Assembly (NCBI GenBank): GCA_965214705.1
Contig: CBDCCI010000002.1
Span: 2,304,001 to 2,368,000 of the forward strand
DNA: 64,000 bases
Reading direction: 5' to 3'
DNA from: Alphaproteobacteria bacterium
GTDB lineage: Bacteria; Pseudomonadota; Alphaproteobacteria; UBA828
This document shows positions 1 to 18,000 of this stretch, piece by piece. Positions within the stretch are counted from its first letter, which is position 1. Each line of letters begins with the position of its first letter. The notes beneath the pieces were generated by a model. The model searched no databases. It saw only the letters and a program-made list of their open reading frames with translations, and was not told the origin of the DNA. A program made the position numbers and the translations under genes.

Positions 1-144
1 GCCTCCCGCCCCGTTCGCGTTTCGTCTCCCACGCGTCCTTGGCGCCCGCCTCCAGGAGCCGGAGTGCGGCCCGTGAGGGGCGAGGCCGGTGGCGTGGGGG
101 AGGGAATCCCCGTCCTCGGCCGAGCGTCCGAACGGGAGCAACCG

Positions 145-720: not shown

Positions 721-859
721 GCGCGGCATCCCCGCCTGACCGTGCCGTTCCATCCGTCCTTCCCGCGCCGGCAGGAGCCGGAGGGGCGCTCGGGCTGGGG
801 CGAGGCCCGGGCGCCCCGGAGGGTGCCCGCGCCGTCCTCCCGCCATTCGGAGCACCCCC

Positions 860-1645
860 ATGACCCAGCCCGCCACCATCGCCCCCGCCACCATCGCCGC
901 GGACTACACGCTGCGCCCGAGCGAGCTCGCGGACACCCTCACGCTGCTCGTCGAGGCGCGCCAGCCCTGCATCGTGTGGGGCCCGCCCGGCTGCGCCAAG
1001 AGCGACATCGCCCGCCAGGTCGCCGCGGCGCTGGGGCGCCTCTACATCGACGTGCGCGCGCTTCTGCTCGACCCCGTGGACTTGCGCGGCATCCCGTGGC
1101 GCTCGATGAACGTGCTGGAGCGCATGCTGGCCGAGGTCATCGTCCAGGAGTGCCGCGACGAGGGCATCGCCACCGACGTGCCCGCCATCGTCCAGCGCTA
1201 CCAGGCGGTCGCCGAGCTCCTCGACCAGCGCACCCGCTGGGCGCCCCCGTCGTTCCTGCCCCCCTCGCACTCGGGCGAGCAGTTCCTCATCAACCTCGAG
1301 GAGCTCCCGTCCGCGGTCCCGATGGTCCAGGCGGCGCTGTACCAGCTCGTGCTCGACCGCCGGGTCGGCGAGTACGCGCTACCCGAGGGCGCGGCGCTCA
1401 TTGCCTGCGGCAACCGCGAGACCGACCGCGGCGTCGTGCACCGCATGCCGACCCCGCTCGCCTCGCGCTTCGTGCACCTCGAGGTCCGCGTCGATGCGAA
1501 GGACTGGTGCGCCTGGGGCGCGGCGAACGGCATCGCCCCGGAGGTGCTGTTCTTCATCGAGCTCGAGCCGACGCTGCTCCACCACTTCGACCCGCAGTCG
1601 AACGAGAAGGCGTTTCCGTGCCCGCGCACCTGGGAGCTATGTTGA
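860..1645 (+). pseudogene. MoxR-like AAA+ ATPase, 3'-truncated
   Basis: Walker A GPPGCAKS, Walker [20 protein letters not shown]; the frame ends just after PCPRTWE, where the palindrome and element begin. Confidence 0.8.
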
Positions 1646-1662
1646 GCTCAACATAGCTCCCA
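1631..1662. repeat. 32-bp perfect palindrome abutting the left end of element A
   Basis: TGGGAGCTATGTTGAG|CTCAACATAGCTCCCA, immediately followed by TTGAAC. Confidence 0.95.
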
Positions 1663-3905
1663 TTGAACTGAGCCGCGTTCCGCGGCGGGGCGCCTCGGCC
1701 GCCGGGTGCCCAGAGTGATCTCCTTGCCGCGCGTAAGTTGAGTGTGGCCGTTCGCTCCAGCGTCTGGGCGCAGGGTCGAATCCTGTTTCTCCCTCGTTGA
1801 TCGATGGTCGTCGACCGCCAAGCCGGCGAGCAAGAGCATGGGCGTGTCTTCGTGACAGACCAAACCCAGAGGGAGACGCCCCATGACGGCACTTCGCCAG
1901 CGCATGATCAACGACATGACGGTTCGCGGCTTCGCCGAGAACACCAGGAAGTCCTACCTCAACTCGGTCTCCGGGCTCGCGGTTTACTACGGTCGCAGCC
2001 CCGAGCACATCTCAGCGGAGGAAGTCCAGGAGTACCTCATCTTTCTTCACGAAGAGCGGGGGCTGGCTTGGCAGAGCTGCAACAGCGCTCGCCAAGGGAT
2101 CCGCTTCCTCTATCGCATCACGCTGGGCTTGCCCGAGCCGCACTTCTATCTGCCCTTCGCCAAGACGCCTTCCACCCTGCCCGTACTGCTCAACCAAGAC
2201 GAACTGGTGCGGCTGTTCAGCGTCACCATCAACCGCAAGCACCGCGCCTTGCTGATGACGGCCTATGCAGCGGGGCTTCGGGCGAGCGAGCTCGGCCGGT
2301 TGCAGATCAGCGATATCGACTCACAGCGGATGTGCCTGCGCGTCGATCAGGGCAAGGGCAACAAGGACCGCTACGTCCCGCTCTCGCCCCGGCTGCTCGA
2401 CGAGCTGCGCGAGTACTGGCAGCGGGTACGGCCCGAGCACTGGCTGTTCCCCGGTCGGATTCCCGGCCGGCCGATGACGCGCCATGGGCCAGCACACGTT
2501 TACGATCGAGCCAAGGACAAAGCCGGGATCGCCAAGCCCGGCGGGATCCACACGCTGCGCCATTGCTACGCCACCGGGCTCCTCGAGGCCGGCGTCGAGC
2601 TGCATGTCATCCAACGCCGCCTCGGGCACACCTCAATCCGCTCGACCATGCGCTACCTTCACCTTGCTCACGACAAGACGTCCGCCACGCCGTCGCCCCT
2701 GGACCTGCTGGAGTTTCCGCGTCCTGCCCAGGCCTGACCGGTGGCTCATGTCGGCCACGCGGCGCCAGCCACACGGCCGGCGCTGGAGGTCGCGGACATC
2801 CTGCGCGAGCGCGGCGACGCCTATGGCGAGACACATCTGCTCTCGGCCCAGCAGCAGAGGGTCGTCGACGCGCTGGTGAACTGCCGCACCGCTGTGCTCG
2901 GCGGGTTCAAGGCAGAATGCGATCACTGCGGGGCGGTGACGATCCAGTACGCCTCGTGCCGGAACCGTCATTGCCCCAAGTGCCAGACCCTCTCGCAGAC
3001 CAGGTGGGTTGAGCGTCAGTGCGCCGATCTGCTCGACATCGACTACTGGCATGTCGTGTTCACCCTGCCCCACGAGCTCAACCCCGTGGCCCAGGGCAAT
3101 GCCGCGCTCATCTACAGGCTGCTCTTCAAGGCCGCCTCCCAGACCCTGCTCGAGTTCGGCCGCAATCCCCGCTGGCTCGGCGGCGAGCTCGGCATCACCA
3201 TGGTGCTGCACACTTGGGGGCAGAATCTGGGACAGCACATCCATGTCCACTGTATCGTCACCGACGGCGGTCTGAGCCCGGACAGAGAGCGCTGGCTCAC
3301 TCCCGCGCGCAAGGGCTTCCTGTTCCCCACGGTCGCGCTCTCGAAGGTCTTCCGCGGCAAGTATCTCGACTTCCTCGGCGCCGCGCACCGCGACGGCGAA
3401 CTCCGGCTCAAGGTCGTCGGCGGTGGTGACGACAGCCGCGAGTTCGAGTGTCTGAAGACCGCGCTGCGGTCGAACGACTGGGTGGTCTACACCAAGGCCC
3501 CGTTCGCCGGCGCCGGGCACGTTCTGGCCTATCTCGGGCGCTACACCCACAAGGCTGCCATCGCCAATCATCGCCTCGTCGACTTCGACGGCGAGCACGT
3601 TCGCTTCCGTTGGCGCGACTACGCTGACGGCAACAAGGTCAAGGTGATGCGTCTCGACGTCGACGAGTTCATCCGCCGCTTCCTCCTGCACGTCCTCCCG
3701 CGCGGCTTCACCCGCCTGCGCCACTACGGCTTGCTCGCCAATCGCTGCCGGGCTCGCAAGCTCGCCCGCTGCCGAGACCTGCTCGGCCAGCCTGCCCCTG
3801 AACCGCGGGAGCCGGAAACGACGCAGCAGATGATGCTGCGACTGACGGGGATCGACATCACCGTGTGCCGCCAGTGCGGCGAGGCAACGCTGCGGCAAAC
3901 CGTCA
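1663..3905 (+). mobile_element. IS91-like element A (tyrosine recombinase + Y2 transposase), right end missing
   Basis: Begins TTGAACTGAGCCGCG, similar to the ends of element B; carries the int + tnp pair; interrupted at 3906. Confidence 0.75.
1883..2737 (+). CDS. tyrosine recombinase of element A
   Basis: MTALRQRMI N-terminus; catalytic motifs GLR, HTLRH, LGH, TMRY. Confidence 0.92.
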   Translation: MTALRQRMINDMTVRGFAENTRKSYLNSVSGLAVYYGRSPEHISAEEVQEYLIFLHEERGLAWQSCNSARQGIRFLYRITLGLPEPHFYLPFAKTPSTLPVLLNQDELVRLFSVTINRKHRALLMTAYAAGLRASELGRLQISDIDSQRMCLRVDQGKGNKDRYVPLSPRLLDELREYWQRVRPEHWLFPGRIPGRPMTRHGPAHVYDRAKDKAGIAKPGGIHTLRHCYATGLLEAGVELHVIQRRLGHTSIRSTMRYLHLAHDKTSATPSPLDLLEFPRPAQA

Positions 3906-3940
3906 TTGAACGAAGCCGCTACGCGGAGTTAGCGGCGTAG
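2741..3940 (+). CDS. IS91-family Y2/HUH transposase; last ~11 codons come from element B
   Basis: Zn motif CDHC...SCRNRHCPKC, HVVFTLP, HTW, HUH HIHVH, YLGRY, EFIRRFLLHVLP. Confidence 0.9.
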   Translation: MAHVGHAAPATRPALEVADILRERGDAYGETHLLSAQQQRVVDALVNCRTAVLGGFKAECDHCGAVTIQYASCRNRHCPKCQTLSQTRWVERQCADLLDIDYWHVVFTLPHELNPVAQGNAALIYRLLFKAASQTLLEFGRNPRWLGGELGITMVLHTWGQNLGQHIHVHCIVTDGGLSPDRERWLTPARKGFLFPTVALSKVFRGKYLDFLGAAHRDGELRLKVVGGGDDSREFECLKTALRSNDWVVYTKAPFAGAGHVLAYLGRYTHKAAIANHRLVDFDGEHVRFRWRDYADGNKVKVMRLDVDEFIRRFLLHVLPRGFTRLRHYGLLANRCRARKLARCRDLLGQPAPEPREPETTQQMMLRLTGIDITVCRQCGEATLRQTVIERSRYAELAA

Positions 3941-4136
3941 AGTTCATTCATTTCCGAGGCGTCGCGGGTGCCGTTTGTTCTGTGCGTTCGCTTCCCGGTT
4001 GCGTCAGTGGCGCTCCGCCCGTCGGGTGGCGGATCCCCAGCAGCCTCCCGATCACCAGTGGTTAGCATCGACCCCTGCGACGGACCGTCGCCGGATCGGT
4101 CCGGCGGCGCGCCGTCGCGATCCAGGGAGATCGATA

Positions 4137-5015
4137 ATGACCGGGACCGCGTGCGACACGAACACCGTCACCCCTCTTCGCCAGCGCATGGAGGAGCAGC
4201 TCCGCATCGCCAATCTGGCCGCGAGCACGTCCAAGGCCTACATCTGCGAGATCAAGAACCTGGCCAGGTACTACGACGCCTCGCCGGACGAGCTCGACGC
4301 CGAGCAGGTGCGCCAGTGGTACCTGGGGCGGATCGACAAGGGGCTCAGTCCGGGCACGACCAACGTCTCCTTCGCCGCGCTGAACTTCCTCTACATCGAC
4401 ACACTCGGCTGGCCTGACCATGTCGCCGGCCTGCGCTCCCGCAAGAAGCCCGGCAAGCTGCCGCGCTACATGTCGGAGCAGGAGGTCGAGCACCTCATCC
4501 TTGCGACACCCGACCTCCGCCACCGTGCTGCCATTGTCACCGGCTATGGCGGCGGGCTCCGCATCTCCGAGACCTTGGCCATCAAGGTCGGCGACATCCT
4601 GTCGGAGAAGAAGCTGCTGCACATCCCCTCCGGCAAAGGCGGCACCGAGAGAATGGCACCGTTGCCGGACATCGTCATCCACTACTTGCGCGTCTACTAC
4701 AGGAACATCTGGCCGCGTCCGACGAACTGGCTCTTCTACGGCGTCTCGCTCGACAGGCCCATCGCAACGGAGACCTTGCAGGCCGCCTTCAGGAGGGCGC
4801 GCGACATTGCCGAGCTCGACCGCAGCTACACCTTCCATTGCCTGCGCCATTCGGCGGCGACCCATCTCCTCGAGCGCGGCGGCGATATCGAGGTGATCCG
4901 GGACATGCTCGGCCATCGAAGCGCGAACACGACCCGTCACTACGCCCGCGTCACCGGCAAGATGTTCGAGGGCCTCGACCACCCGATCTCAGGCTTCGCA
5001 GCGTTGCGCAACTGA
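4137..5015 (+). CDS. tyrosine recombinase of element B
   Basis: TPLRQRM, GLRISE, HCLRH, LGH, TRHY; GGGAG precedes ATG 4137. Confidence 0.9.
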   Translation: MTGTACDTNTVTPLRQRMEEQLRIANLAASTSKAYICEIKNLARYYDASPDELDAEQVRQWYLGRIDKGLSPGTTNVSFAALNFLYIDTLGWPDHVAGLRSRKKPGKLPRYMSEQEVEHLILATPDLRHRAAIVTGYGGGLRISETLAIKVGDILSEKKLLHIPSGKGGTERMAPLPDIVIHYLRVYYRNIWPRPTNWLFYGVSLDRPIATETLQAAFRRARDIAELDRSYTFHCLRHSAATHLLERGGDIEVIRDMLGHRSANTTRHYARVTGKMFEGLDHPISGFAALRN

Positions 5016-5021
5016 CGGCGC

Positions 5022-6262
5022 GTGGAGGCCGAACGCGCGGGCGTGGCGGAGATCTTCCGCCGCGCCGGCGCCGCTTTCCGTGAGCGCCACAAGGGCGCAT
5101 CGACGCCGCCCGGCTCAAGGTCATGGGCGCCATCGAGGCGTGCCGCACCGCCGTGCTCGGCGGCCACATGTACGCCTGCGAGGGCTGCGGGCGCGAGCAT
5201 CCGCTCTTCAACTCCTGCCGCAACCGCCACTGCCCCACCTGCCAGGGTCTCGCCGCCAACCTCTGGAGCGAGGAGCGCGCCGGGGACATCCTGCCGGTGC
5301 CCTACTTCCATGTGGTCTTCACCCTGCCCAAGGAGGTTGCCGCCATTGCCTTCTGCAACCGCAGGGTGGTGTTCGACATCCTCTTCCGGGCCGTCGCCGA
5401 GACCCTGCGCACCATCGCCGCCGATCCCCGCCACGGCGGCATGCGCATCGGCGGCACCGCGGTCCTCCATACCTGGGATCAGAAGCTCCGCTTCCACCCG
5501 CACCTGCACGTGGTCGTGCCCAACGCGGGCTTCGACGTAGACAGTGGCGAGTGGAAGACGGGGAGCACCACCTTCCTCGCCCCCGTCAAGGTCCTCGGCA
5601 GCCTGTTCCGCCGCCTCTTCCTCGAGGAGCTCGCCCGCGCCCACGGCCGGGGGGACCTGGAGTTCCACGGCACCGTCGCCCACCTCGCCAATCCCGGCGA
5701 GTTCCACGCCACGCTTGCCGCCGCCCGGGCCAGGGACTGGGTGGTCTACGCCAAGCGGCCCTTCCGCGGGCCTGAGCAGGTCTTCCGGTACCTCTCGCAC
5801 TACACGCACAGGATCGCCATCTCCGACAGCCGCATCGTCTCCTTCGACGGCGAGACGGTCTCCTTCCGCCACCGAAAGCCCAAGGCGCCGGGGCAGAGAA
5901 AGCCGCGCTACGGCATCGCCACCGTGAGCGCCGACGAGTTCATCCGCCGCTTCCTGAGGCACGTCCTGCCGGACGGCCTGCACCGCATTCGCTACTTCGG
6001 CATCCTCGCCAACGGCTGCCGCGCCAGCACGCTGGAGAGAGCACGCCAGGCTCTCGGCGCCCTCGGCTGCGCCGCCCCCGAGGGAAGCGTGGACGGCGCT
6101 CGGGCCGAGCCCGACGAAGAGCCCGAGATCGGCACCGCGCCCGTGGCCTGCCCCCACTGCGGCGGCGTCATGCGCCTCGTCCGCGAAATCCGCCGCCGCC
6201 ATGAGCCCCGCTCGACGCGCGGCCCGCCGGCGCTGCCGCCGACCCACAGGGGGAAACCGTGA
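5022..6262 (+). pseudogene. IS91-family Y2 transposase with apparent 1-bp frameshift near 5096
   Basis: The N-terminus VAEIFRRAG is in a different frame from IDAARLKVMGAIEACRT...SCRNRHCPTC, HPHLH, YLSHY. Confidence 0.8.
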
Positions 6263-6524
6263 GACGCCCGCTCGCTTCGGCCCCGCGCAACGGCGCCAAA
6301 GCGCCGACGCACGACCGAACCTGTCTCCGCTTGAGCCGGGCTGACAGCCCTCGGCTCACACCCCGCTCAGTCCTCGCAGCGTGCGCCCGCATGCCTGCCG
6401 AAAGACCGGCGCGAGCGTCGATTTTATGCGCAACTCTGCTGCCGGTGGATGCCGCCTGACGCTGACATCAGCGCACTTTCCACATAGCTCAACTTCGCCT
6501 CTCGTGGCCCGCGGCTTCGTTCAA

Positions 6525-6566
6525 AAGGGTTGGGCAGGCTCTCGAGAGAGAGCCTGCCCAACCCTT
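6525..6566. repeat. 19-bp-stem hairpin abutting the right end of element B
   Basis: AAGGGTTGGGCAGGCTCTC-GAGA-GAGAGCCTGCCCAACCCTT. Confidence 0.95.
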
Positions 6567-6570
6567 AACC

Positions 6571-7104
6571 TTGGACGGCGCGGGCCTACGATTCGGGGAG
6601 GCGACTCGCCTCTCCCTTGCCGACGTCGATCTGGCGAACGCCGTCCTGACCATCCGGGCCACCAAGTTCTACAAGAGCCGGCTGGTCCCGGTCGGCCCTC
6701 AGCTTGCAGCGCTTCTGGGAAGCCACGTGACCCTGCGCCAGCGCGCCGGACTGGTGGAAGGCCGGGACGCGTTGCTCCTGGCGAACCGGGACGGGACGCG
6801 GCTCGCCAGTAGCACGGTGCTGGCCGCGTTCGACACGCTGAGGCGCCTCGCCGGGGTCCACCGTCCCGCGGCGGGGCGGACGATCCCGCGGCTGCACGAT
6901 CTGCGGCACAGCTTCGCCGTCCACCGCCTGACGAGCTGGTATCGGCAAGGCGCTGATGTGCAACGGCTGCTGCCGGTGCTCTCCACCTATCTCGGTCACG
7001 CCGATCTGGAGGGCACGAAGATCTATCTGTCGATGACGCCGGAGCTCCTGGAAGAGGCGTCGCTACGGTTCGCCCGCTATGCGGCGGGAGGTCGGCATGC
7101 CTGA
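6571..7104 (+). pseudogene. RitB-like tyrosine recombinase, 5'-truncated
   Basis: GAGLRFGEA, TKFYKSRLVP, PRLHDLRHSFAV, LPVLSTYLGH; N-terminal part absent. Confidence 0.85.
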
Positions 7105-8092
7105 GCCCGCAACCCTCGGCCCGTGGCTCCGCCGGTTCTTCACCGAGCACATCGTCACCGAACGCAATCTGGCCAGGAACACCCGCAAGAGCTACCGCGA
7201 CACCTTCCGCCTGTTGTTGCCCTTCGTCAGCCGAAAGGTGCGCAAGCCCGTAGACCGGCTCGCGGTATGGGACATCACATCCGGATGCGTGCGGGAGTTC
7301 CTCGCCCATGTCGAGACGGATCGAGGTTGCTCCGTCCGGACTCGCAATCAGCGACTGGCTGCGATCCAGGCCTTCGCGCGCTTCGTCGGCAGCCGCGACC
7401 CGGTCCATGTCGAATGGTGCGGTCATATCCGGGCGATCGCGTCGAAGAGATCGGTGCCGCCGCCGGTCGGATGGCTGACCCGGGCGGAGATGGAGGCGAT
7501 GCTGGCGACGCCCGACCGCAAGACCCGGCGGGGCCGGAGCGAGTACGCGCTTATGCTCTTCCTGTACAACACCGGCGCAAGAGTGTCCGAGGCCATCCAG
7601 CTGAGGGTATGCGATCTGCAGATCGGAACGCGGAAAGGCGGGCACGATCTCGCCACCTTGCACGGCAAGGGCGGCAAGACGCGCCAGTGCCCGCTATGGC
7701 CGGAAACCGAGCGCGTACTCGCGGAGGAGATCAGCGATCGCGCAGGCGATGACGCGGTGTTCGTCAGCCGGCTCGGGACACCGTTCACCCGCTTCGGCGT
7801 CTATCGGCTGATCGAGCGGTGTGCGGCCCAGGTCCCGGAACTGGCCGATCGGACGGTGACGCCGCACGTGATCCGGCACACCACGGCCTGCCACCTGGCC
7901 CTCGCCGATGTGGACATCAACACCATCCGTGCCTGGCTCGGACACGTCTCGATCAGCACGACCAACATCTATACCGAGATCGACCTGACGCTGAAGGCCA
8001 ACGCCGTCGCGATGTGCGAGGTGGGCCAGCCGCGACCCGCTCGGTCATGGAAGGAGGACAAGGACCTCATGGCCTTCCTGAAGGCGTTGTAA
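7097..8092 (+). CDS. RitC-like tyrosine recombinase
   Basis: NT.KSYRDTF, TRNQRLAAI, YNTGARVSE, PHVIRHT, WLGH, TNIY, C-terminal LMAFLKAL; overlaps the ritB stop. Confidence 0.9.
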   Translation: MPEPATLGPWLRRFFTEHIVTERNLARNTRKSYRDTFRLLLPFVSRKVRKPVDRLAVWDITSGCVREFLAHVETDRGCSVRTRNQRLAAIQAFARFVGSRDPVHVEWCGHIRAIASKRSVPPPVGWLTRAEMEAMLATPDRKTRRGRSEYALMLFLYNTGARVSEAIQLRVCDLQIGTRKGGHDLATLHGKGGKTRQCPLWPETERVLAEEISDRAGDDAVFVSRLGTPFTRFGVYRLIERCAAQVPELADRTVTPHVIRHTTACHLALADVDINTIRAWLGHVSISTTNIYTEIDLTLKANAVAMCEVGQPRPARSWKEDKDLMAFLKAL

Positions 8093-8116
8093 GCGGCGAC
8101 GGGGCACCGGCCTCGG

Positions 8117-9160
8117 TCACCCCGTCCCAACTGTCCGCCGGCGCATGAAGCGAACCGCGTCCTCGGGGGCGAGTTGGATGCGCACAAATGCGCGGACGGC
8201 GCCCAAGTCGAACGCTTGCAGATCCTCGTTGAGGTCGCCGAGGCGCGGAGCGAGGGCTAGCGCTTCGATGCCGGCCGCTTCGGCTCGTTCGGTGAGCACC
8301 GCGACCGCCGTATCGCCTGCGGGATCGTTGTCTCGCGCGATGTAGAGCCGTCGCAGACCGGCAGCCAGTTCGAGGGCGGCGAGGTGGTTCGCCGAGAGCG
8401 CCGCCGCCATGGGCATGGCGGGCAGCGCGCATCGCAGCGACAGCATCGTCTCGATGCCTTCGCCGGCGGCGAGGACGTTGCCGGCCGCACCGAACCGGAC
8501 GGCATGGCCGAGAAGGTCGCCCATCGCGCGTCGCGGCGTATCGATCGGCGCCTTGCCCAACCCGTCCGGGGCGATCCAGGTGCGATGCACGCCGGTGATC
8601 GCGCCCGAGAGGTCGGTGACGGCGGCGATCATCGCCGGCCAGGTCTCGGTCGGCGCATGCCCATCCGGGCGATACCAGCAGCGCGGATGGAAGCGGAGCG
8701 CTTCGCAGCTCGTCAGATGTACGATCCCGCGGTTGCGCAGGTACGCCTCGGCCAGCGTGCCGGCGATCGGTCTGGCGATCGCCCAGAGCCTGCGCGCAGC
8801 TTCGGCCGAGCCCCTCGGGGCGGGCGCTCTTGACGCGACCGGCGGTTCGGCCCGGGGCAGCGACAGGAAGCGCCGCGCCTCCTCGGCGACCTCGCGGAAC
8901 TCCGTGAGCCCGCAGCTCTCGCGGATCACGTCGAGCAGGTCGCCGTGCTCGGCCGAGGCCGCATCGCTCCAGCGCCCGGCGGCCCCAGGGCCGGCCTCCG
9001 GCCCGCTCAGCCGCACGTACATCGACCGGCCGGGCGTGTTGCGCACGTCGCCCACCATCCAGTAGCGGCCCTGACGCCGACCCTTCGACAGATAGTGGCG
9101 GCAGACCGCCTCGGCGTCGCGCGCGAGGCGCCGTGCCAGCTCGGAAGCGTCGCGCGGCAT
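8117..9160 (-). CDS. toprim-domain primase-like protein (DUF7146/Toprim_3 type), RIT passenger
   Basis: EAVCRHYL, GDLLD, AEAYLRNRGI, LRFHP, GVHRTW, GEGIET, IARDND; RBS GGGGAGGG. Confidence 0.85.
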   Translation of the reverse strand: MPRDASELARRLARDAEAVCRHYLSKGRRQGRYWMVGDVRNTPGRSMYVRLSGPEAGPGAAGRWSDAASAEHGDLLDVIRESCGLTEFREVAEEARRFLSLPRAEPPVASRAPAPRGSAEAARRLWAIARPIAGTLAEAYLRNRGIVHLTSCEALRFHPRCWYRPDGHAPTETWPAMIAAVTDLSGAITGVHRTWIAPDGLGKAPIDTPRRAMGDLLGHAVRFGAAGNVLAAGEGIETMLSLRCALPAMPMAAALSANHLAALELAAGLRRLYIARDNDPAGDTAVAVLTERAEAAGIEALALAPRLGDLNEDLQAFDLGAVRAFVRIQLAPEDAVRFMRRRTVGTG

Positions 9161-9185
9161 CACGCGACCCTCCCCGCGGGACTGA

Positions 9186-9269
9186 GGTTATGTTGCCGAG
9201 AAACCGCAAAGCGCGTGCAGCTGCGCCGCCCAGCGCCGGGCCGCAACATAACCACCGGCGCAACATAAT
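9186..9269. repeat. RIT right-end repeats
   Basis: GGTTATGTTGC (9186-9196) is inverted to GCAACATAACC (9243-9253); a second GCAACATAA lies at 9260-9268. Confidence 0.8.
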
Positions 9270-9447
9270 CGGTGAACTTGCCGGGCGTGCCGGGGGGCGC
9301 GAGGCGGACGAAGAGGGATCGCCCGCGTCCGCCGTCGAGGTCGCCCGCGACCCAGTATCGGCCCCGGCGGCGTCCGTAGGGCAGGTAATGGCGGCACACG
9401 GCCTCGGCGCGTTCGGCGAGGGCTGCGGCGACGGAAGACGCGTTCAT
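9270..9447 (-). pseudogene. 5' part of the resident toprim-primase gene, interrupted by the RIT end
   Basis: MNASSVAAALAERAEAVCRHYLPYGRRRGRYW...GRSLFVRL...GKFTD is homologous to the N-terminus of 8117-9160; homology stops at the RIT end. Confidence 0.85.
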
Positions 9448-9650
9448 GGCGCGCACGTCGGGATCAGGCGGGAACCGGCGAAGCCGGGACCGTGAGCGGA
9501 GATGGAGAGCATGGGGACCTCGCTGGCCGCTGCGTGGGACGTGCCCGGTCCCGGCATCGCTCGGCCTCTCGTCGGCGCAGGGACGGCGGGCGGCGCGCGA
9601 AGCGCGAGCCCCACCGTCTGGCCCGTGAGGGGCTCGGATCAGGCTGCACG

Positions 9651-9689
9651 AAAAAGCCCACCCCGCGCGGGAGGAACGCGGGGTGGGCT
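9651..9689 (-). terminator. rho-independent terminator after ssb
   Basis: 13-bp stem AGCCCACCCCGCG/CGCGGGGTGGGCT followed by a T-run on the minus strand. Confidence 0.7.
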
Positions 9690-9732
9690 CTGGGGCGAGC
9701 GGGCTGAGGACGCCCGCTGCGAGGACAGGCAA

Positions 9733-10182
9733 CTAGAACGGGACGCCGTCTGTCCCTGCCGTAGCGGCATCGCCGGTCGGCGCAGCCTCACCGTCGGGCG
9801 CCTGGGCACCGTTGCCGTTGGTGCCGGCAGGCTTGTCCAAGAACTGGACGCGCGAACCAGGCACCAGCAGGATCTCGGTCGAGAACCGGTCGCTGTCCTC
9901 GCCCTCCTTGCGCCACTTCCTGGTCTGCATCTTGCCCGCGACGTAGACCAGCCGGCCCTTCTTCGCGTGCTTCTCCAGCATGTCGATCAGCCCGCTCTGG
10001 AAGCTGACGACCCGGTGCCACTCCGTCTTGTCGATCCGCTCGCCGCCGCCGGCCTTGTCGATGTACGACTCGTCGGTCGCGATGCTCAGGTTGGCCACGC
10101 GCCCGCCGCTCTGCAGGTGGTTGATCGTGACATCGGCGCCCAAGCGGCCAATGACTTCCGCCCTGTTCAGTCCGAAGGCCAT
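9733..10182 (-). CDS. ssb: single-stranded DNA-binding protein
   Basis: LNRAEVIGRLGAD, KTEWHRVV, KKGRLVYVAGKMQTRKW, C-terminal DGVPF; RBS AAGGAG. Confidence 0.93.
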   Translation of the reverse strand: MAFGLNRAEVIGRLGADVTINHLQSGGRVANLSIATDESYIDKAGGGERIDKTEWHRVVSFQSGLIDMLEKHAKKGRLVYVAGKMQTRKWRKEGEDSDRFSTEILLVPGSRVQFLDKPAGTNGNGAQAPDGEAAPTGDAATAGTDGVPF

Positions 10183-10589
10183 GATCCGTCTCCTTCTGTC
10201 GATCCTGGTTGATGACGATGGGTGGACGAACGGCGAGGAGACCCTCTCGATCCCCTTCCCGCTCACCCCTCGAAAGCTCTTCTCAACCTCTCCTCTGCAT
10301 CCGCCCCGATGGCTGCCGGTTTGCTTCGGCCTTGCCGCCGGCACGGACGCGAACGGCGGTGCGGCCGACGCGATGTCGTGGGGAAGTTTGTGGAGACGCG
10401 GGTCCCGCTGCGGTCCGCATCGGCGGCAGGATGGATCCCGAGCATGCATCCACTTCCGGCGGAGCGGCGCGGGACGAGTGCGGAGCGGCGCGGGAGGCCG
10501 ATGGCCGGCGGGCACCCAACCCACACAGCAGCTATAGCAAGCGGACTAGACCGGTATCCCCGCCGAAACTCTGCACGCGCTCGAAGGGG

Positions 10590-10808
10590 TCACTCGAAGT
10601 CGGTGCGGCGAAGCCCGGACTGCCGGATTATCGACATCAGCGTGCCGGTGCGCAGCTCCCGGTGGTCGGGCACCGGGACGGTGGTGGTCCGCCCGTCGTG
10701 CACCCGCTGCATCACGATGTGGCTGCCGCGCCTTCTCACCTGGGCGAAGCCGCGGGATTCGAGGATGCGGCAGACCTCGCGTCCTGAAAGAACCCGTTGC
10801 CTAGCCAA
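10590..10808 (-). CDS. hicA: HicA-family toxin
   Basis: GFAQVRRRGSH, TVPVPDH, GTLMSIIRQ; 72 aa. Confidence 0.88.
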   Translation of the reverse strand: MARQRVLSGREVCRILESRGFAQVRRRGSHIVMQRVHDGRTTTVPVPDHRELRTGTLMSIIRQSGLRRTDFE

Positions 10809-11022
10809 CGGCCACCTCGACGTGGGTGATATAGAACTCGGTCCGGGTACGCCGCTCGACTTCCTCGGGAGACGCGGTTTCGAAGAACAGCGTCAGCGCT
10901 TCTTCGAGGTTGCTGCGCGCCTCGGTCACGCTGTCGCCCTGGCTGGCAACATCGATCTCGGGACAGAGCGCGACATACCCGTCGCCGTCGCGTTCGACGA
11001 TCGCCGTCAACCGCCTGTTCAT
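10801..11022 (-). CDS. hicB: short HicB-family antitoxin
   Basis: YVALCPEIDVASQGDSVTEARSNLEEAL; overlaps the hicA start. Confidence 0.88.
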   Translation of the reverse strand: MNRRLTAIVERDGDGYVALCPEIDVASQGDSVTEARSNLEEALTLFFETASPEEVERRTRTEFYITHVEVAVG

Positions 11023-11323
11023 ACCTGGCCTCCTTTTCCTCGCATGCAGACAGTCCGGGTCGACTGACTCTGGCATCGTCGCTGGCCGGCGACAATGAGG
11101 CCCGGCGTCGATCGGGCCTCAAGTGCGCTGGATCGGGACCGCCGGGCGGAGGAGCGTGGCGTGTTGGCGCGGCCGGAGTGGGCGGAATTCCACCGGCCGG
11201 CTTCAATGAAGCGGCGCGGCGCCCGGTGCGTCGAACGGCCGGCAATGGCTCCGGAACGGGAAAGTTCGCCGGGAGCCGGGCCGCAGGTGCGGCCGCTTCG
11301 GGACGCCTGTGCCCGCTCGGCGC

Positions 11324-12133
11324 TCATGCCGGCGGCAGCGCCATCAGCGGGACGTTGGAGAGGATCTCCACCTGGTCGGTGCGCAGGCGAGCGAAGGCGA
11401 TGCAGGCGGCGGCTTCGGATTCGGTCTCGAAGACGCCCAGCTCCTCGCCCGTCTCCAACTCGATCACGGCGATCTGCGGCGGCCACATCGACACGAGATG
11501 ACGCTCGGGCGCGCGAGAGTTGGACCGATATGCGCAGCGCAGGCAGCGGGCCGCGCCACCGGCAGGCGCCTTGCAATCTACACAGATGCCTTGGGCGCGG
11601 CGGGCGGCATATCGTTTCCTGCTGACGGCGCTCTCCCGCTCGGGGGAGACGCGTTCCTTCTCCAGCGCGAGGCACCGGCCGCAGCGCGACAGGCCGCCGA
11701 CCGTGGGCTGCCTGCAGCGCACGCAGCGACCGGCGGCCTTTCGCGCGGCATAGCGCCGGCGGTCGAGTGCGCGCCTGGCCTTGCGGCATGGTTCGCAGAC
11801 GGAGCGGCTCTCCTCCGGGCGGCGGAGGCCGCACGACGTGCAAAGTCCCGCCTCCTGGCGCGCCCTCCGCCGCCGCCTGTCGCCGGCGCGGTCGGCTCTG
11901 CGGCAGCGCTCCGGGTCGCGGCCGCGGTAGAGCCTGCCTTGAGACCTGGCCCTGTCACGGCGAACCTTCTCGGCGGCGCGGCGCTTCTCGGCGCAACCGC
12001 CGCACACCTTCAGGCCGGGTTCAGGCGGAACGCGGCCGCAGCGGGTACACAAGCCCCGTGCGATGCGGTCGGCATGGCGTTGGCGGAGGAAGCGATCGTG
12101 CGCCTCCTTCCTGGCGGCGTCCCGGTGGGGCAT
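11324..12133 (-). CDS. Arg-rich protein with four tandem CxxC...CxxC zinc-finger-like repeats
   Basis: GLCTRC..CGGC, GLCTSC..CEPC, GRCVRC..CGRC, GICVDC..CLRC. Confidence 0.75.
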   Translation of the reverse strand: MPHRDAARKEAHDRFLRQRHADRIARGLCTRCGRVPPEPGLKVCGGCAEKRRAAEKVRRDRARSQGRLYRGRDPERCRRADRAGDRRRRRARQEAGLCTSCGLRRPEESRSVCEPCRKARRALDRRRYAARKAAGRCVRCRQPTVGGLSRCGRCLALEKERVSPERESAVSRKRYAARRAQGICVDCKAPAGGAARCLRCAYRSNSRAPERHLVSMWPPQIAVIELETGEELGVFETESEAAACIAFARLRTDQVEILSNVPLMALPPA

Positions 12134-12148
12134 GACAGGGATGCCCGC

Positions 12149-12472
12149 TCAGCGCGCATAGCGCGTGGCCAGGAAACCGGCCGCCGCAGAACCCCAGTAC
12201 TGGATGCCCGAGGCCTTCAGGTTCAGCGCCGTGCACACGATGATCTCGTCGCGCTCGGGCCGCAGCTTCTTGACCGCAGCCACGCCTGCGACGATGCGCC
12301 TCCGCCTGCGACGGCCCGTCGCTCTCGGCTGCTCGGGCTCGACGGGATGGATCTGGCCGTCGGAGTCCGAGCGGTATTTCTCGATCACGTAGCGGTCCCC
12401 TTCCAGGCCCCGCCCGAATACGTGCACCAGGTAGGTCTGCGCGTCGCGATGGAACATCCGGCCGATCCGCAT
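12149..12472 (-). CDS. hypothetical protein
   Basis: GAGGGGG RBS before ATG 12472; ends 15 bp before the zinc-finger gene. Confidence 0.6.
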   Translation of the reverse strand: MRIGRMFHRDAQTYLVHVFGRGLEGDRYVIEKYRSDSDGQIHPVEPEQPRATGRRRRRRIVAGVAAVKKLRPERDEIIVCTALNLKASGIQYWGSAAAGFLATRYAR

Positions 12473-12678
12473 CGTCCGTTCCCCCTCGTTCGTGGTCGCC
12501 GTGGGGGCAACGCTCTTCGCAACGCCGCCCCCGCCGCCTGCGTCCCGGCCGGCCTCTGCCTCACGCCGGCGCGCGGACCCCATGGCGGCGAAGGGCGCGG
12601 GGCTATGAGTAGGAACGCCGCCTCTCTAGAGGCGGCGCCGTCGGAAGGATCGGAAATGCGCGACGCGTTAGCAGGTAC

Positions 12679-12772
12679 TCGGGTTGCAGGGATCGGCGCA
12701 ACACGGATTGCACGCAGCACACGGGTTGCAGGGATCCGCGGGGCACGGGTTGCATGCGGCGCACGGGTTGCA
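12679..12772. repeat. five direct repeats of (A/T)CGG(G/A)TTGCA with alternating 24/18-bp spacing
   Basis: Copies start at 12679, 12703, 12721, 12745, 12763. Confidence 0.85.
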
Positions 12773-12974
12773 CGGATCATGCGAGTCCGCGATGACGATC
12801 CGCCCGTCATCAGCGGATACTCGACCATCCGCCTGAGGCCCGACAGCGCGACCGGGACCGGACTGGAAACCCGACCCGAGATATAATTATTTTTCATCGG
12901 TCAAGATGCGATTGAGACCGGCCCCACAAGCCCCGTGCCGGATCCGGGGAGTTGGGCCGTAGGGGGAGCCCGCC

Positions 12975-13454
12975 ATGAGAAAGCCTCGGGGGTACAACCT
13001 GAGCACCGCGCACCTTGAGGCGCCGGGACCGTGGCGCGTTGGCGGTGAAGACGATGCGGGAATTCACGTGCTCGACGCGAATGGGGAGCGCGTGGCAACC
13101 ATCTGGAAAACGCCGGTGCGCTCGGTTTCGACGCTGGAGGCGATCCAGGCGCTCGTGGTCCGTATGGGTGACGAGGTGCGCGCTACGCGCCTGTGTGCGA
13201 ATCCCGAGTGCAGGCGCGCGTTTGACGCCCCCAGCCGCACGCAGAAGCACTGCTCGGCTGGGTGTGCCATGGCCACACAGCCACGTGTCATCAAGGCCCG
13301 CAAGCGCGATGAGCACGCGTATGAACTGCGGGTGCAGGGACTGACATGGAGAGAGGTCGCGGAGCGCTGTGGCTACTCCCATCCCGAACGGGCGCGAATC
13401 TGCGCACAGAAGCACGCGCGTCGTAACGGATTGACCATGCCGACACGGGGCTGA
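12975..13454 (+). CDS. hypothetical protein with CGNR-like Zn finger and C-terminal HTH
   Basis: CANPECRRAF...KHCSAGC and AYELRVQGLTWREVAERCGY; RBS GGGGGAG. Confidence 0.65.
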   Translation: MRKPRGYNLSTAHLEAPGPWRVGGEDDAGIHVLDANGERVATIWKTPVRSVSTLEAIQALVVRMGDEVRATRLCANPECRRAFDAPSRTQKHCSAGCAMATQPRVIKARKRDEHAYELRVQGLTWREVAERCGYSHPERARICAQKHARRNGLTMPTRG

Positions 13455-13479
13455 TTGTTGAATGGGGCGGCAATGGCCA

Positions 13480-13657
13480 ATTCGCGCGCGCATCTCCTCT
13501 GACGAGACCGACTTGCGGTGCACTGGCCGGAACCAACCCATCTGCCAGAGCCGGGCGATCCCCTCAGCATCCCGACGGTCGATCTTGATCGGCATCGCCT
13601 TCAGCGCGGCCTTCACCCGCCGGGTTTCCATCAGCACGGCCTCGAAGCCGGCGTCGG
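13480..13657 (-). pseudogene. IS110-family transposase remnant
   Basis: LMETRRVKAALKAMPIKIDRRDAEGIARL.QMGWFRPVH. Confidence 0.75.
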
Positions 13658-13724
13658 TCCTCCTCGTTCCATAACCTAAGGGTGGACCCATTCGATGGGG
13701 GAGGATCAGTCGGGTCCGGAGCCT

Positions 13725-14432
13725 TCAGAGGAGGCCGCGCTCGGCGAAGCTGACCACCTCCCCGTCGCCGACGACGAAGTGGTCGATGAGGCGCACGTCG
13801 ACGAGCGCGAGCGCCTCGGCGAGGCGCTTGGTGAGGACGCGGTCGGTGGCGCTGGGCTCCGCAACCCCCGAGGGGTGCCCATGAGCCACCACGAGCGCGG
13901 AGGCGTTGTGCCCGAGCGCGCGGCGCACCACCACGCGCGGATGCACGCTGGCGCCGTCCACCGTGCCCTGAAAGAGGGTCTCGCTGGCGATCGGCCGGTG
14001 CCGGCTGTCGAGGAAGACGGCGACGAAGACCTCGTTGCGGTAGCCCCGAAGCCGGGCCTCCAGGTAGCGCCGGGTATGGCTCGGCGAGGTGAGCGCGCCG
14101 TCGCGGCGAAGCCGCGCCTGCATCCAGCGCGCGTGCAGCTCGTGAAACGCATGCACCCGCGCGCGATCCTCGGCGGGGAGGAGGACGGTGCGGAGCGGAT
14201 CGTCGGGGTCGTCGAGGAGCTCCCTGAGCCCCCCGGCGGCGGCGAGCGCCGCGGCGTCGAGGCGCACACCGAGGAGGGCGAGGAGCTCGTGGTCTTCGAG
14301 GGCGGCGGGGCCGGCGCGCTCGATGCGCGCGAGCACGGGCTCGGGCGCCGGCTTGGGCCGGGCCTTGCGCCGTGCGGGCCGGGGCGTGCGGAACGCGGCC
14401 GGGACGGCGGTAGCGGTGGCGGTGTGCGGCAT
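13725..14432 (-). CDS. radC: RadC/JAB-domain protein
   Basis: GPAALEDHELLALL, EVF, GTVD.ASVHPR, HGHPSG, PSATD, LIDHFVVG, SFAERGLL. Confidence 0.92.
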   Translation of the reverse strand: MPHTATATAVPAAFRTPRPARRKARPKPAPEPVLARIERAGPAALEDHELLALLGVRLDAAALAAAGGLRELLDDPDDPLRTVLLPAEDRARVHAFHELHARWMQARLRRDGALTSPSHTRRYLEARLRGYRNEVFVAVFLDSRHRPIASETLFQGTVDGASVHPRVVVRRALGHNASALVVAHGHPSGVAEPSATDRVLTKRLAEALALVDVRLIDHFVVGDGEVVSFAERGLL

Positions 14433-14692
14433 GACGCCTCCATGGTCGGCAGCGGAGGGGGAGCGGCCCGGAAGCTCTCCACTACACTCCGGAGCCGCGC
14501 CCTCGGCCGCGCCCGGCTCCGCCTCGTTGTGAGGCGTCAGGCGGAATCGGGCTGCAATGCCCCGTGGACGTCAGGCCGGCGGCACGGGCCCCGGGTGGCG
14601 GGTCGCGGGCCGGCGAGACGTCTCCCGCGGGCCGGGTCGGTGGGAGGCGGCGAACGCCGGGCCGGCTGCGCAGCCCGGGGGACGGCGGGGCG

Positions 14693-14962
14693 TCAGTGCT
14701 CGGCGGGGTCGCCGGGCTCGCGCGTCTCCGCGCGCATGGATTGCGCGGCGAGCTCGGTCCACTGGTCCCGCGTCAGGCCGAGGCGCCGGTTCAGCTTGTC
14801 GCACAGGCGCTCGGCGTCCTCGACGGTGAGCGCCACCAGCGCCGTCGGGATGAATCCGCTCATCCCCTCGATGACGATGCGGATCTGCTGCACCTCGTCC
14901 TCGACGTCGTAGGCGGGCACGAAACAGTAGTTCGGGTCGTCCGGCAGGGTCTGGGCGGTCAT
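14693..14962 (-). CDS. hypothetical protein
   Basis: MTAQTLPDDPNYCFVP...; GGAGAG RBS; co-oriented with neighbours. Confidence 0.6.
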   Translation of the reverse strand: MTAQTLPDDPNYCFVPAYDVEDEVQQIRIVIEGMSGFIPTALVALTVEDAERLCDKLNRRLGLTRDQWTELAAQSMRAETREPGDPAEH

Positions 14963-15098
14963 GGCGGCTCTCCGTGTGTGCAGGAAGCGAACCCGCGGCC
15001 GGCGGGCCGGCGGCACGTGCCCCGCGCGCGGCGGCGCGGGGGATGGTAGCGGACGGGCCGGCCCCCCGGCGGGCGAACGGGAGGCCGGCGGTACGGAC

Positions 15099-18000
15099 TC
15101 ATGCGGCGAGCGGCCAGCGCTCGAGGATGCGGTCGAGGACCTGCGCCCCGGGGGCGAAGGCGCGAGCGCGCCAGGAGACGATCTCGACGGTGCAGCCCAT
15201 GCGCCGGAGCGTCGCGGTGTCGGTGTCGGCCGGTCCCTCGATCTCGATGCGGTCCGCGCCCATGATGCGCCGGCGCGCAAGGCGCCAGCCGTTGGCGAGC
15301 GCAAGCGCCGTGCCCCGGCCCATGACCGCCTCGAAGGCTTCCGCGCCGGTCATGGCGAAGGCGGTGTCGAGGCCGAAGCTCCCACGCACGGCGCGCACCT
15401 GCTCGGCGTCGAGCACGCGCCCGATGAGGGCGTCGCCGTCGTCGGTCGAGAGCCTTCGCACCCGCATGTTCTCCGCGGGCAGCCGGTCCCAGACCGGCAG
15501 GAGCAAGCCCGCCGCGAGCCAGAAGCGCGATTCCCGGTGCGTCGGAAGCTCGGAAACCTCGTGCTCCCAGAGCGCGCGCCAGGTCGCCTCGTCGGCGGGC
15601 CGCCAGTGCGAGGCGTCGAGCTCATGCCTCGCCATGGACTCGCGCGTGGCGGGGCGCACCAGGCGCACGCGCTCCTGCACCCCGCCGTCGTCGAGCATGT
15701 GCGACGTGGCGGACAGGACGACGGCGGCGCGCTTCGAGCGTGCGTTGACCACCAGCCTCGGCTTGCCGTCGGGGCCGGGCTCGTGCTCACTCAACGCGAG
15801 CGCCGTCTCGGCGGTGGTGGGCGCAAGGCGATCGCGGCGCAGGATCTCGACGAGCTCGGTGGCCGCCCCGGTGCCCGGATGCGTGTAGAGCGTCTCGCGG
15901 TCCGAGGCGATGAGCGAGTCGGCACGCACGGTCTCGACCCCGACCTCGAAGACGCCGGCCTCGACGGCCTGCTCGATGTTGGCCTCGATGCGGGTCTCGA
16001 GTGCTGCGAAGAGCGCGTTCTGCTCGTCGATGGGCAAGGCCAGCAGGCGGTTGAGGAACCGCGACATCGGCGGCAGCTCCTCCTTGAGGCTCCCCTCGTG
16101 GACGAGCTTGAGACCCGTCGCCTTCTGGAAGCGGTCGACCGACCAGTCCGGGATGTGCCCGAGCGAGAGCGCGATGTAGAACTGGCGCAGCGCCATCTTG
16201 GCGTACAGGCTCTCCAGGTTGTCGCTCGCGCGGAAGAGCGTGGCGTCGCCGCCGCCCATCGCGGTCTGGCTGTCGCGCTGGCCGCGGGTGATGGCGCCGA
16301 GGCTATCGAGCCGCCGCGCGATGGTCGCGATGAACCTGCGCTCGCCCTTCACGTTCGTCGTCACGGGGCGGAAGAGCGGCGCCGACGCCTGGTGCGTCCT
16401 GTGGGTGCGCCCCAAGCCCTGGATGGCCTGGTCCGCGCGCCATCCCGATTCGAGGAGATAGTGGACCCGGCGCTCGGTGTTGGCGCAAGCGAGGTCCGCG
16501 TGGTAGCTCCGGCCCGTCCCGCCCGCCATGCTGAAGATGAGGATGCGCTTGGTGCCGTCCATGAAGGCGGCGGTCTCGGCGAGGTTGGCCGAGGCGGGCC
16601 GGCCGCGGAGCGCGAGGCGCAACCCCCGCGCGTCGGTCACCTTGACCACCCGGCGCGAGCGACCGGTCACCTCCGCCACCGCGTCGTGGCCGAAGTGGTG
16701 GACGAGCTGGTCCAGCGCCGAGGGCACCGGCGGCAGCGCGGCCAGCTTCTCGATGAGGGCGTCGCGCCGCGCCACCGCCTCCTGGCAGAGCACGGGGTGG
16801 CCGTCGTCGTCGACCACCGGCCGCGACAGGACGTTGCCGTCCTCGTCGGTGAAGGGCTCCTGGAGCTGCACCGGGAAGGCGTGCGCCAGGAACTCGATGA
16901 CCGTCTCGCGGGGCGTCAGGTCGACGTGGAGGTCGTCGAGCTCCGACGCCGGTATCTCGACGATGCGCCGCTCCATCAGCGCCTCGCCGGTCGAGACGAG
17001 CTGCACGACGACGGAGCGCCCGGCGTCGAGGTCGGCCTCGATCGCGCGGATGAGCGAGGGGCACTTCATCGAGGTCAGCAGGTGCCCGAAGAAGCGCTGC
17101 TTCGCGCCCTCGAAGGCGGACATCGCGGCGGACTTCGCGTTCTTGTTCCGCGTGGCCTCCTCGTCGACGATGCCGGTGGCCTTGAGCGCGGCCTCGATGT
17201 TGTGGTGGATGACCTTGAAGGCGCCCGCGTAGGCGTCGTAGATGCGCCGCTGGGCGTCGGACAGCGGGTGCTCCAGAATGTCGACCTCGACCCCGTCGTA
17301 GGAGAGCGCGCGGGCCTGGTAGAGCCCGAGGGCCTTCAGGTCCCGCGCGACCACCTCCAATGCCGCGACCCCGCCCGCCTCCATCGCGGAGACGAAGTCG
17401 GTGCGGGTCTCGAACGGGGTCTCGCCGGCGGCCCAGAGACCGAGGCGCTCGGCGTAGGCGAGGCCGGGGACGGTGGTGGCGCCGGTCGCCGACACGTAGG
17501 CGATGCGCGCATCGGGGAGCGCGCGCTGGAGGCGAAGCCCGGCGCGGCCCTGCTGCGAGGGGGCGACCTCGCCGCGATTGCCCTTCGAGCCCGCCGCGTT
17601 CGCCATCGCGTGCGCCTCGTCGAAGACGATGACGCCGTCGAAGGCGTGGCGGTCGTCCTCGTCGAGCGAGCCCGCGAGCCAGCCGACGATCTGGTCGAGG
17701 CGCGAGGGCTTGCCCTGGCGGGCCGGCGAGCGCAGCGTCGCGTAGGTCGCGAAGAGGATCCCCTCGTCGAGCGGGATCTCGGCACCCTGGCGGAACTTCC
17801 CCAGGGCGATGACGTCCTCGTCGCGCCCGCCGAGCGCAGTCCAGTCGCGGCGCGCGTCCTCGACGAGCTTGTCCGACTGCGAGAGCCACAGGGCGCGCTT
17901 CCGGCCGCGGTGCCACTGGTCGAGCACGACGGCGGCGACCTGGCGGCCCTTGCCGCACCCGGTGCCGTCGCCGAGCGCCCAGCCGCGGCGGAACCGAACC

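Follow-up and report, generated by a model that had tools for sequence, protein, structure and literature searches.

We analyzed a 64,000-nucleotide stretch of an alphaproteobacterial genome of the UBA828 lineage (assembly GCA_965214705.1, contig CBDCCI010000002.1, positions 2,304,001 to 2,368,000; hereafter the window), in which an element of the RIT class, built around the tyrosine-recombinase genes ritA, ritB and ritC, interrupts a gene encoding a primase-like protein with a toprim domain. Sequence comparison indicates that this element represents a subfamily of RITs with cargo, which insert into a primase-like gene found on conjugative elements and bear complete spares of it behind both ends. 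The targeting of the toprim gene and the carriage of a spare copy are well supported by the loci compared, and the best-supported reading, which we regard as probable, is that the carried (passenger) gene restores the function destroyed by the insertion. An earlier note on the window had proposed such a rescue, and the proposal is supported in part: the element does appear to target the gene and to supply a complete copy of it.

The interrupted gene and its passenger

The resident target is left as a 5′ fragment of a DUF7146-Toprim gene at 9270-9447 (minus strand; about 59 codons), cut after PGKFTD by a RIT end of 108 bp, as the earlier note, apart from the length, had recognized. The fragment starts at an ATG (9447-9445) held within the minus-strand open reading frame (ORF) 9732-9160, the product of which reads MNASS...AERAEAVCRHYLPYGRRRGRYW...PGKFTD and then continues for 35 codons through the element end (YVAPVVML...SPAGRVA) before a TGA at 9162-9160. 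The region 9268-9800 is 92% identical to an intact paralogue at C1:347147-347673, the genome being 7.9 Mb in three contigs (C1-C3). The element end occupies 9164-9268 (minus strand) and contains a motif, R (TTATGTTGCG), at 9268-9259 (R1) and 9251-9242 (R2), its inverse, R′, at 9196-9188, and a Shine-Dalgarno-like sequence (GGGGAGGG) at 9175-9168. Three matches to the R motif were found in the window against 0.75 expected, and 4 of 100 shuffles reached three. Where fragment and end meet lies the core, a crossover-equivalent hexamer (9269-9274, minus strand) that reads CACCGA in the window and GACCGA in most relatives. Since the core is common to target and element, the exact boundary is ambiguous within CACCGAT (9274-9268); the end previously placed at 9186-9269 is present, but its outer limit is blurred by these bases.

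Directly behind the end follows a complete passenger gene, toprim1 (8117-9163, minus strand; 347 or 348 aa, starting at the ATG 9160-9158 or the GTG at 9163). Its product begins MPRDASELARRLARDAEAVCRHYLSKGRRQGRYW... and matches the Pfam families DUF7146 (E 3.9e-42) and Toprim_3 (E 8.2e-21), and the genome holds four copies of the gene at 100% identity. The TGA of the broken target frame sits inside GTGATG, the passenger start. The features on which the rescue had been proposed, that is, a full-length same-strand homologue between ritC and the end (an ORF to 8117), a target frame that stays open through the end and a TGA overlapping the passenger ATG, were all confirmed. The passenger is no local duplication, as had also been argued, because it is 53% identical to the broken target fragment and 48-53% identical to 12 intact paralogues of the genome.

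Convergent with the passenger is a complete ritC (7079-8092, plus strand; 337 aa, Phage_integrase and SAM-like domains), which is 100% identical to the ritC of the intact genomic copy described below. It overlaps, at 7079-7104, a 3′ fragment of ritB (6571-7104, plus strand; Phage_integrase E 2.6e-18) encoding the last 179 of 316 residues and matching residues 138-316 of the intact genomic RitB at 98.9%. The window element is a remnant, lacking ritA, the 5′ half of ritB and the second end, because an IS91-like element with its edge at 6570 interrupts ritB. Among the 25 listed of the 75 inverted pairs found in 1-16000, none involves 9186-9269, the partner end having been lost with the truncation.

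An intact copy in the same genome

One intact copy of 5,551 bp is present at C1:1589019-1594569 (locus L111). It consists of an end, toprim1 (348 aa, reading inward), ritC, ritB and ritA (on the opposite strand), toprim2 (335 aa) and a second end; toprim2 is in line with ritABC, and the trio is contiguous and overlapping (ritA 415 aa, ritB 316 aa, ritC 337 aa). The termini form a perfect inverted repeat of 954 nt, comprising the 108-nt end and about 282 toprim codons, beyond which toprim1 and toprim2 are homologous but divergent. The corresponding segment of the window is 8316-9268 (minus strand), and a 956-nt contig from a public DNA run, X1, covers exactly 8316-9271. Elsewhere in the genome, a copy on C2 has an IS91-like element inside ritB with the same breakpoint as in the window, a copy on C3 is split within ritC, a toprim2-ritA remnant lies at C1:9802-12253, and a solo end lies at C2:516216. 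In nine out of nine end copies of this genome the end is fused to a toprim start. On the basis of gene order and homology to canonical 3.4-kb trios the element is assigned to the RIT class, the recombinases themselves giving XerC/XerD-type NCBIfam matches only, below the cut-offs of those models. It is a cargo-bearing RIT variant, with 5,551 bp and two toprim genes as against about 3.5 kb with little or no cargo.

Recurrence in other genomes and plasmids

Scanning GTDB species genomes with RitC yielded 112 relatives; 80 of these (66-97% identity; loci labeled L followed by a number) were kept. They are nearly all from Alphaproteobacteria, and many lie on 3-6-kb contigs. An inverted toprim gene directly follows ritC at 43 of the 80 loci (absent from 15, not evaluable at 22), so the ritC-toprim-end arrangement does recur, as the earlier note had anticipated; a toprim gene directly precedes ritA at 32 (absent from 13, not evaluable at 35). 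Both sides are occupied at 25 loci, where two distinct full-length paralogues are kept. The only loci with both positions evaluable and empty are L109 and L110, which are among the three most distant RitC sequences and do not lie in toprim genes, and in the RitC clade of the window all 23 members have at least one passenger. Eight loci (L032, L035, L037, L053, L054, L060, L071 and L076) are simple insertions, with target residues 1-67 on one side and the target from residue 66 on the other. L036 and L038 are bordered on either side by a target 5′ fragment, the outcome to be expected if copies have undergone exchange, and a toprim-less RIT of 3,415 bp in Acidocella (L086 and L087), at GRWQE codons, is likewise flanked by two inverted toprim 5′ fragments. 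All four double-5′-fragment flanks are probably products of recombination between copies.

The same five genes occur on finished plasmids of Aminobacter, Mesorhizobium (pMSNZP2077A), Sagittula and Rhodobacter, where they are annotated merely as toprim domain-containing protein and tyrosine-type recombinase/integrase. Plasmid pMSNZP2077A is conjugative (MOBP, MPF_T), and its target starts about 25 bp after a strawberry-notch gene. Among 399 plasmids with a match, 259 are typed as conjugative, and a strawberry-notch helicase gene often precedes the target.

Target site, junctions and ends

Eight end copies of the genome under study keep their tip, four adjoining toprim 5′ fragments, one a non-toprim site and three insertion sequence ends. 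Four different toprim genes are interrupted at GG[CG]AAGT[TG][CG]ACCGA/TTATGTTGCG (the stroke marking the junction), and the non-toprim site, next to the end copy at C3:1749816, is target-like in sequence (GGGGAGTGGATCGA); this off-target insertion shows that recognition takes place at the DNA level. The empty site, GK[FW]TD, is uninterrupted in the 12 intact paralogues of the genome, and contigs with uninterrupted sequence from X1 and from a public RNA library, X17, part from the window exactly at 9268. Within toprim genes, the insertions fall on G[KRH][WF]x[DE] codons, in keeping with the earlier expectation of insertion always at GK(W/F)TD-type codons. The site corresponds to the end of a small N-terminal domain of the toprim protein, and about codon 62 onward is displaced. 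The idea that passengers escape insertion through an altered core was rejected as a general rule: the passenger of the window reads GAGCGA (GRWSD), but 37 of 44 passengers elsewhere keep GACCGA (counted by eye), and at L103 a passenger-type gene (GHWTE) is itself a target.

Each end is composed, inward, of the core, R, 7 nt, a second R, about 55 nt, the inverted R′, GGGAGG and GTGATG. The toprim-less RITs L109 and L110 (about 3.42 kb) have this layout (R, 7 nt, R, about 55 nt, R′) directly beside ritA and ritC, so the toprim genes must have been inserted between canonical ends and the trio. On the 5′ side of the target the junction reads target...TG-GACCGA-R, and on the 3′ side R′-TCGGTC-palindrome-GACCGA-target remainder, where the palindrome is a 20-bp sequence (TTATGTGCAGTTGAACATAA or its complement). 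The core hexamer is found at both flanks of simple insertions (L037 and L112), and it varies with the target, as shown by TACGGA at either junction of the Sagittula plasmid. If the element were excised across the two direct hexamers, the gene would be restored and a circle with a large palindrome at its junction would result.

The interior is seen in both orientations relative to the target, and the palindrome, mostly in one orientation, lies on the 3′ side of the target regardless of the direction of the interior. Evidently, it is the interior that flips at its site. If a fixed circle instead had two alternative integration sites, palindrome orientation should track the interior; this model was rejected on the evidence of L035 and L037, which share palindrome orientation and have opposite interiors. 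Inversion in situ, or homologous recombination between the repeats, fits better. Comparison of L111, L112, L037, L053, L113 and L035 gave perfect identity inward from the tip over 13, about 100, 424, 550, 600, 953 or 1,133 nt by lineage, and short-read contigs often break at matching toprim residues on both sides. Perfect repeats of such varying length, always starting from the tip, indicate recurrent tip-inward gene conversion between the ends.

Reading frame across the element end

Passenger starts were located by homology, and no start motif was required, as a pattern demanding GTGATGCC biases the frame count. Of 43 passenger 5′ ends, 39 had a recognizable end motif and the remaining four too little sequence. 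At 36 of these 39 ends the target frame terminates on the TGA within GTGATG, namely at all 20 junctions with a target 5′ fragment, where preservation of the frame had been predicted, at 12 of 15 on the palindrome side and at all four without an assigned junction type. These 36 in-frame ends are 102, 105 or 108 nt long and the three exceptions 101 or 104 nt. The pattern fits selection for an open, correctly terminated upstream frame, with modest statistical weight because the ends are related by descent.

Properties of the passenger genes

Pairwise ratios of nonsynonymous to synonymous substitution rates (dN/dS) are 0.22 for the ritC-side passenger (25 sequences) and 0.27 for the ritA-side passenger (14 sequences), with 0.12 for ritC and 0.18 for ritA for comparison. 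These values indicate that the passengers are under purifying selection on the protein, and the acidic Toprim residues E234, E237, D277 and D279 (E ... DxD) are invariant in 20 sequences. A PDB sequence search with the passenger returned no match. Its AlphaFold2 model has a mean pLDDT (predicted local distance difference test) of 84.3, and the top-ranked Foldseek matches of the model, down to rank 18 (18 at E<=0.001), are all primase chains, comprising DnaG RNA-polymerase domains, T4, T7 gp4 and Twinkle, with TM-scores of only 0.31-0.42; the best is Aquifex DnaG (2au3, E 9.3e-9). The passenger is therefore predicted to have a fold resembling that of DnaG-type primases. The N-terminal 66 residues form a small separate domain in the model, and among the aligned cysteines C20 alone is invariant.

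The passengers are nested among interrupted targets of other genomes in a tree built from residue 70 onward, and the residents of this genome form a distant clade. Passenger and RitC distances, which the earlier note had suggested comparing, are correlated (Mantel r 0.45, n 28, and 0.68, n 19; none of 2000 permutations as high), and by this measure the passengers co-diverge with RitC.

Hints of transcription across the junction come from two public RNA libraries, both metatranscriptomes of relatives with contigs about 95-96% identical to the window. A 410-nt contig from X17 (18 differences) bridges passenger, end and target 5′ fragment over 8948-9315, and a 739-nt contig from X15 (26 differences) runs from 8573 (8573-9270) across the end into a palindrome-type junction. 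These are no more than hints, the public-run contigs being Logan assemblies that carry no level, strand or transcript ends, and RNA libraries may contain DNA; stretches that such contigs leave uncovered carry no weight either way.

A replacement for the interrupted gene and its alternatives

In the reading we favor, the window holds the right-hand remnant (ritB fragment, ritC, toprim1 and end) of a 5.55-kb RIT, whose family has gained a pair of complete DnaG-like toprim genes that point inward, each from behind one of the terminal repeats. The insertions lie at the 6-bp core (GACCGA) inside the conserved GK(W/F)TD codons of toprim genes in conjugative plasmids and regions resembling integrative and conjugative elements (ICEs). 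At the 5′ junction the target frame stays open through the 102-108-bp end and stops on the TGA in the passenger's GTGATG, after GGGAGG; at the other junction, the 20-bp palindrome and a second, inverted core separate the element from the target 3′ remainder. Since both interior orientations occur and a toprim gene stands behind each end, the target promoter and 5′ coding region always have a full primase-like gene directly downstream. The passenger would then be expressed by transcription and ribosomes that come in from the target and would replace the destroyed function, making the insertion cheap for the carrier plasmid or ICE.

Several observations weigh against this reading or limit it. 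The frame counts overstate the case: one of the three frames is closed anyway by a TAA in the R′ motif, a rough count of indel events by eye gives about five in frame versus two out of frame, and the difference between junction types (20/20 versus 12/15) has a p of about 0.07, calculated by hand. Translation of the passenger would not need coupling, as a ribosome-binding site of its own (GGGAGG) stands just before GTGATG. A consensus scan found no sigma-70-like promoter in 8050-9800, other promoter types being outside its reach. That the passenger acts as a primase is predicted from the model, and no obvious zinc-ribbon cysteines were seen in its N-terminal domain when the translation was inspected by eye, without a motif scan. 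With 48-53% identity to the residents, its functional equivalence to them is not certain, and we infer, from sequence, passenger expression, translational coupling and neutrality of the insertion alike. At L031 and L032, the closest relatives (RitC 96-97% identical), toprim2 is internally deleted and toprim1 is absent, and the element still lies in a toprim gene; L036, L064 and L095 are without the ritA-side copy and L061 and L070 without the ritC-side copy. Such losses show that replacement can be dispensed with, at least in the short term. The case of L031/L032, like the truncation of the window copy, the second toprim gene at the other end and the long inverted-repeat ends, was absent from the earlier note.

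The toprim genes might instead serve the element itself, for instance by priming replication of a circular or hairpin intermediate, the landing in a homologous gene being a by-product of ends that arose from such a gene or beside one. Conservation of both copies under purifying selection, the position of toprim2 in line with ritABC as a four-gene unit and the co-divergence of passenger and RitC would all be expected. We nevertheless consider this unlikely, as toprim genes are missing from canonical RITs whose ends are built alike (L109 and L110, and L086/L087), derivatives without one or both passengers persist at the same target, and the passengers are nested among target-type genes and form no separate family. 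It also leaves unexplained why the carried gene is of the same family as the target, why the site is early in that gene and why stop falls on start in all 20 target 5′ junctions. Somewhat less probable still is that the toprim genes are captured flanking DNA without a role, kept by linkage and concerted evolution of the repeats, with an accidental frame overlap. The prior for an open frame is indeed between one in three and two in three, the ends share ancestry, the perfect repeat tracts of 13 to 1,133 nt speak of strong gene conversion, and loss variants exist; yet such DNA would hardly have dN/dS values of 0.22-0.27 across 25 and 14 diverged copies, two distinct full-length paralogues kept at both ends in 25 loci, or end indels that are mostly multiples of three. 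That two unrelated RIT remnants merely happen to flank a toprim gene of ordinary DNA, a scenario raised beforehand and compatible with the truncated, single-ended element of the window, is refuted by the intact copy, with both ends outside both toprim genes, and is at odds with the same order in 25 loci elsewhere and in finished plasmids and with the fusion of end and toprim in nine out of nine copies; we give it practically no weight. Restoration of the interrupted function by the passenger thus remains the reading we prefer.

A more speculative extension, which we put forward as a possibility that we ourselves rather doubt, is that the element acts as an invertible cassette that compensates for itself. 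RitABC would turn the whole interior around between the 5′-junction core and the inverted core by the palindrome, and with a primase gene behind each end the carrier plasmid or ICE would keep a primase in either state. The recombinase operon would alternate between sense, read from the target promoter through toprim2, and antisense, and tip-inward gene conversion would keep the ends, up to a whole toprim gene, identical. If this were true, the transposon would insure its host element against its own insertion and use the expression signals of the host gene as an on/off switch.

Other features of the window and the genome

Upstream of the target lies ssb (9733-10200, minus strand; Pfam SSB E 1.6e-21, residues 119-220 of the ORF 9733-10524), followed by a terminator-like hairpin found by sequence scan (9657-9678, minus strand), the position of which would place the target's own promoter region in about 9450-9650. 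A strawberry-notch-like helicase (15099-19583, minus strand; AAA_34 and Helicase_C_4), the usual neighbor of the target toprim gene on plasmids, supports a conjugative-element context. Two small overlapping ORFs (10590-11076, minus strand) were judged by eye from their translations to be a HicA/HicB-like toxin-antitoxin pair. A NADAR-domain protein is encoded at 64-720 (plus strand; E 1.2e-21), and the ORF after it, 860-1645, ends at the palindrome adjoining the first IS91-like unit.

To the left of 6570 are two IS91-family units, each composed of a tyrosine recombinase and a Y2 transposase. The one that interrupts ritB (3975-6570, plus strand; Pfam Y2_Tnp, Zn_Tnp_IS91 and Phage_integrase) encodes the recombinase at 3975-5015 and the transposase at 5123-6262 and ends in a hairpin at 6525-6566; the genome repeats the segment 6301-6570/6573 over 100 times, with about 98-100% identity. 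Insertion sequences are exceptionally abundant in this genome. Its IS91 companion integrase, which is about 33% identical to RitC over residues 80-301, is present in over 100 near-identical copies. IS91-family elements with their companion recombinase stand directly against RIT-type palindromes or R′ motifs (...ACATAA/TGAATTGGCCTGTATCGG...) at 1637-1656 and 6525-6570 in the window and at L113:1735-3826; this genome has eight or more such sites, among them the right tip of the intact RIT. On pMSNZP2077A, a different IS91 with integrase adjoins the RIT tip. IS91-family elements may share or target the RIT recombination motif.

Comparison with known systems

RIT elements are widespread, and their mechanism is largely uncharacterized. 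As described by Van Houdt et al. (2009/2012), they comprise three adjacent, overlapping tyrosine-recombinase genes, ritA-ritB-ritC, with inverted-repeat ends and identical copies within a genome; they insert into genes of mobile elements (radC of a Tn4371-like ICE, tnpA of IS66 and of a Tn6049-like transposon), are about 3.5 kb long, have short or unclear ends and, in these descriptions, carry no cargo (PMC3414803; PMC2864759). The elements analyzed here resemble them in the recombinase trio with short overlaps, the inverted-repeat ends and the insertion into mobile-element genes. They differ in their size of about 5.55 kb, in the carriage of two copies of their own target gene, in perfect inverted repeats of up to 1.1 kb, and in junctions that reveal the core, the palindrome and the target codons. 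No account of toprim- or primase-carrying RITs was found in the literature searched, although Ricker et al. 2013 and the RIT supplementary tables (Table S4/S5 of PMC3414803), which were outside that search, may list such contexts. The subfamily offers testable parts: a putative 10-bp binding motif that occurs three times at set spacing, a 6-bp core, a junction with a palindrome, and a defined site in one gene of conjugative plasmids and ICE-like regions. Its long terminal repeats provide a clean system for studying concerted evolution. That the element appears to pay for its insertion with complete spares of the gene it destroys would also account for its being carried by conjugative elements that stay functional.

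Some integrating phages and islands displace one end of their target gene and bring a replacement for it; examples are integrators into tRNA genes and phage 21 and e14 at icd. The RIT described here shares with them site-specific tyrosine recombination into a conserved gene and the bringing along of sequence that would keep the function. Those integrators rebuild one continuous gene by means of a short in-frame 3′ end, whereas here the target frame stops after 35 codons of the element end, neither junction rebuilding a continuous gene, and the passenger is a separate, complete ORF. Almost the whole gene, from about codon 62, is displaced, the 5′ fragment is left as a short upstream ORF, and a substitute stands at both ends. 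The element works like the target-restoring class but is built differently. Switches of the fim type, in which tyrosine recombinases invert a DNA segment between inverted sites, offer a second parallel, since here too a segment bounded by inverted recombinase sites occurs in either orientation. In contrast to those switches, inversion in the present case is deduced from comparison between loci, an entire transposon makes up the segment, and each orientation offers the same kind of gene to the outside promoter.

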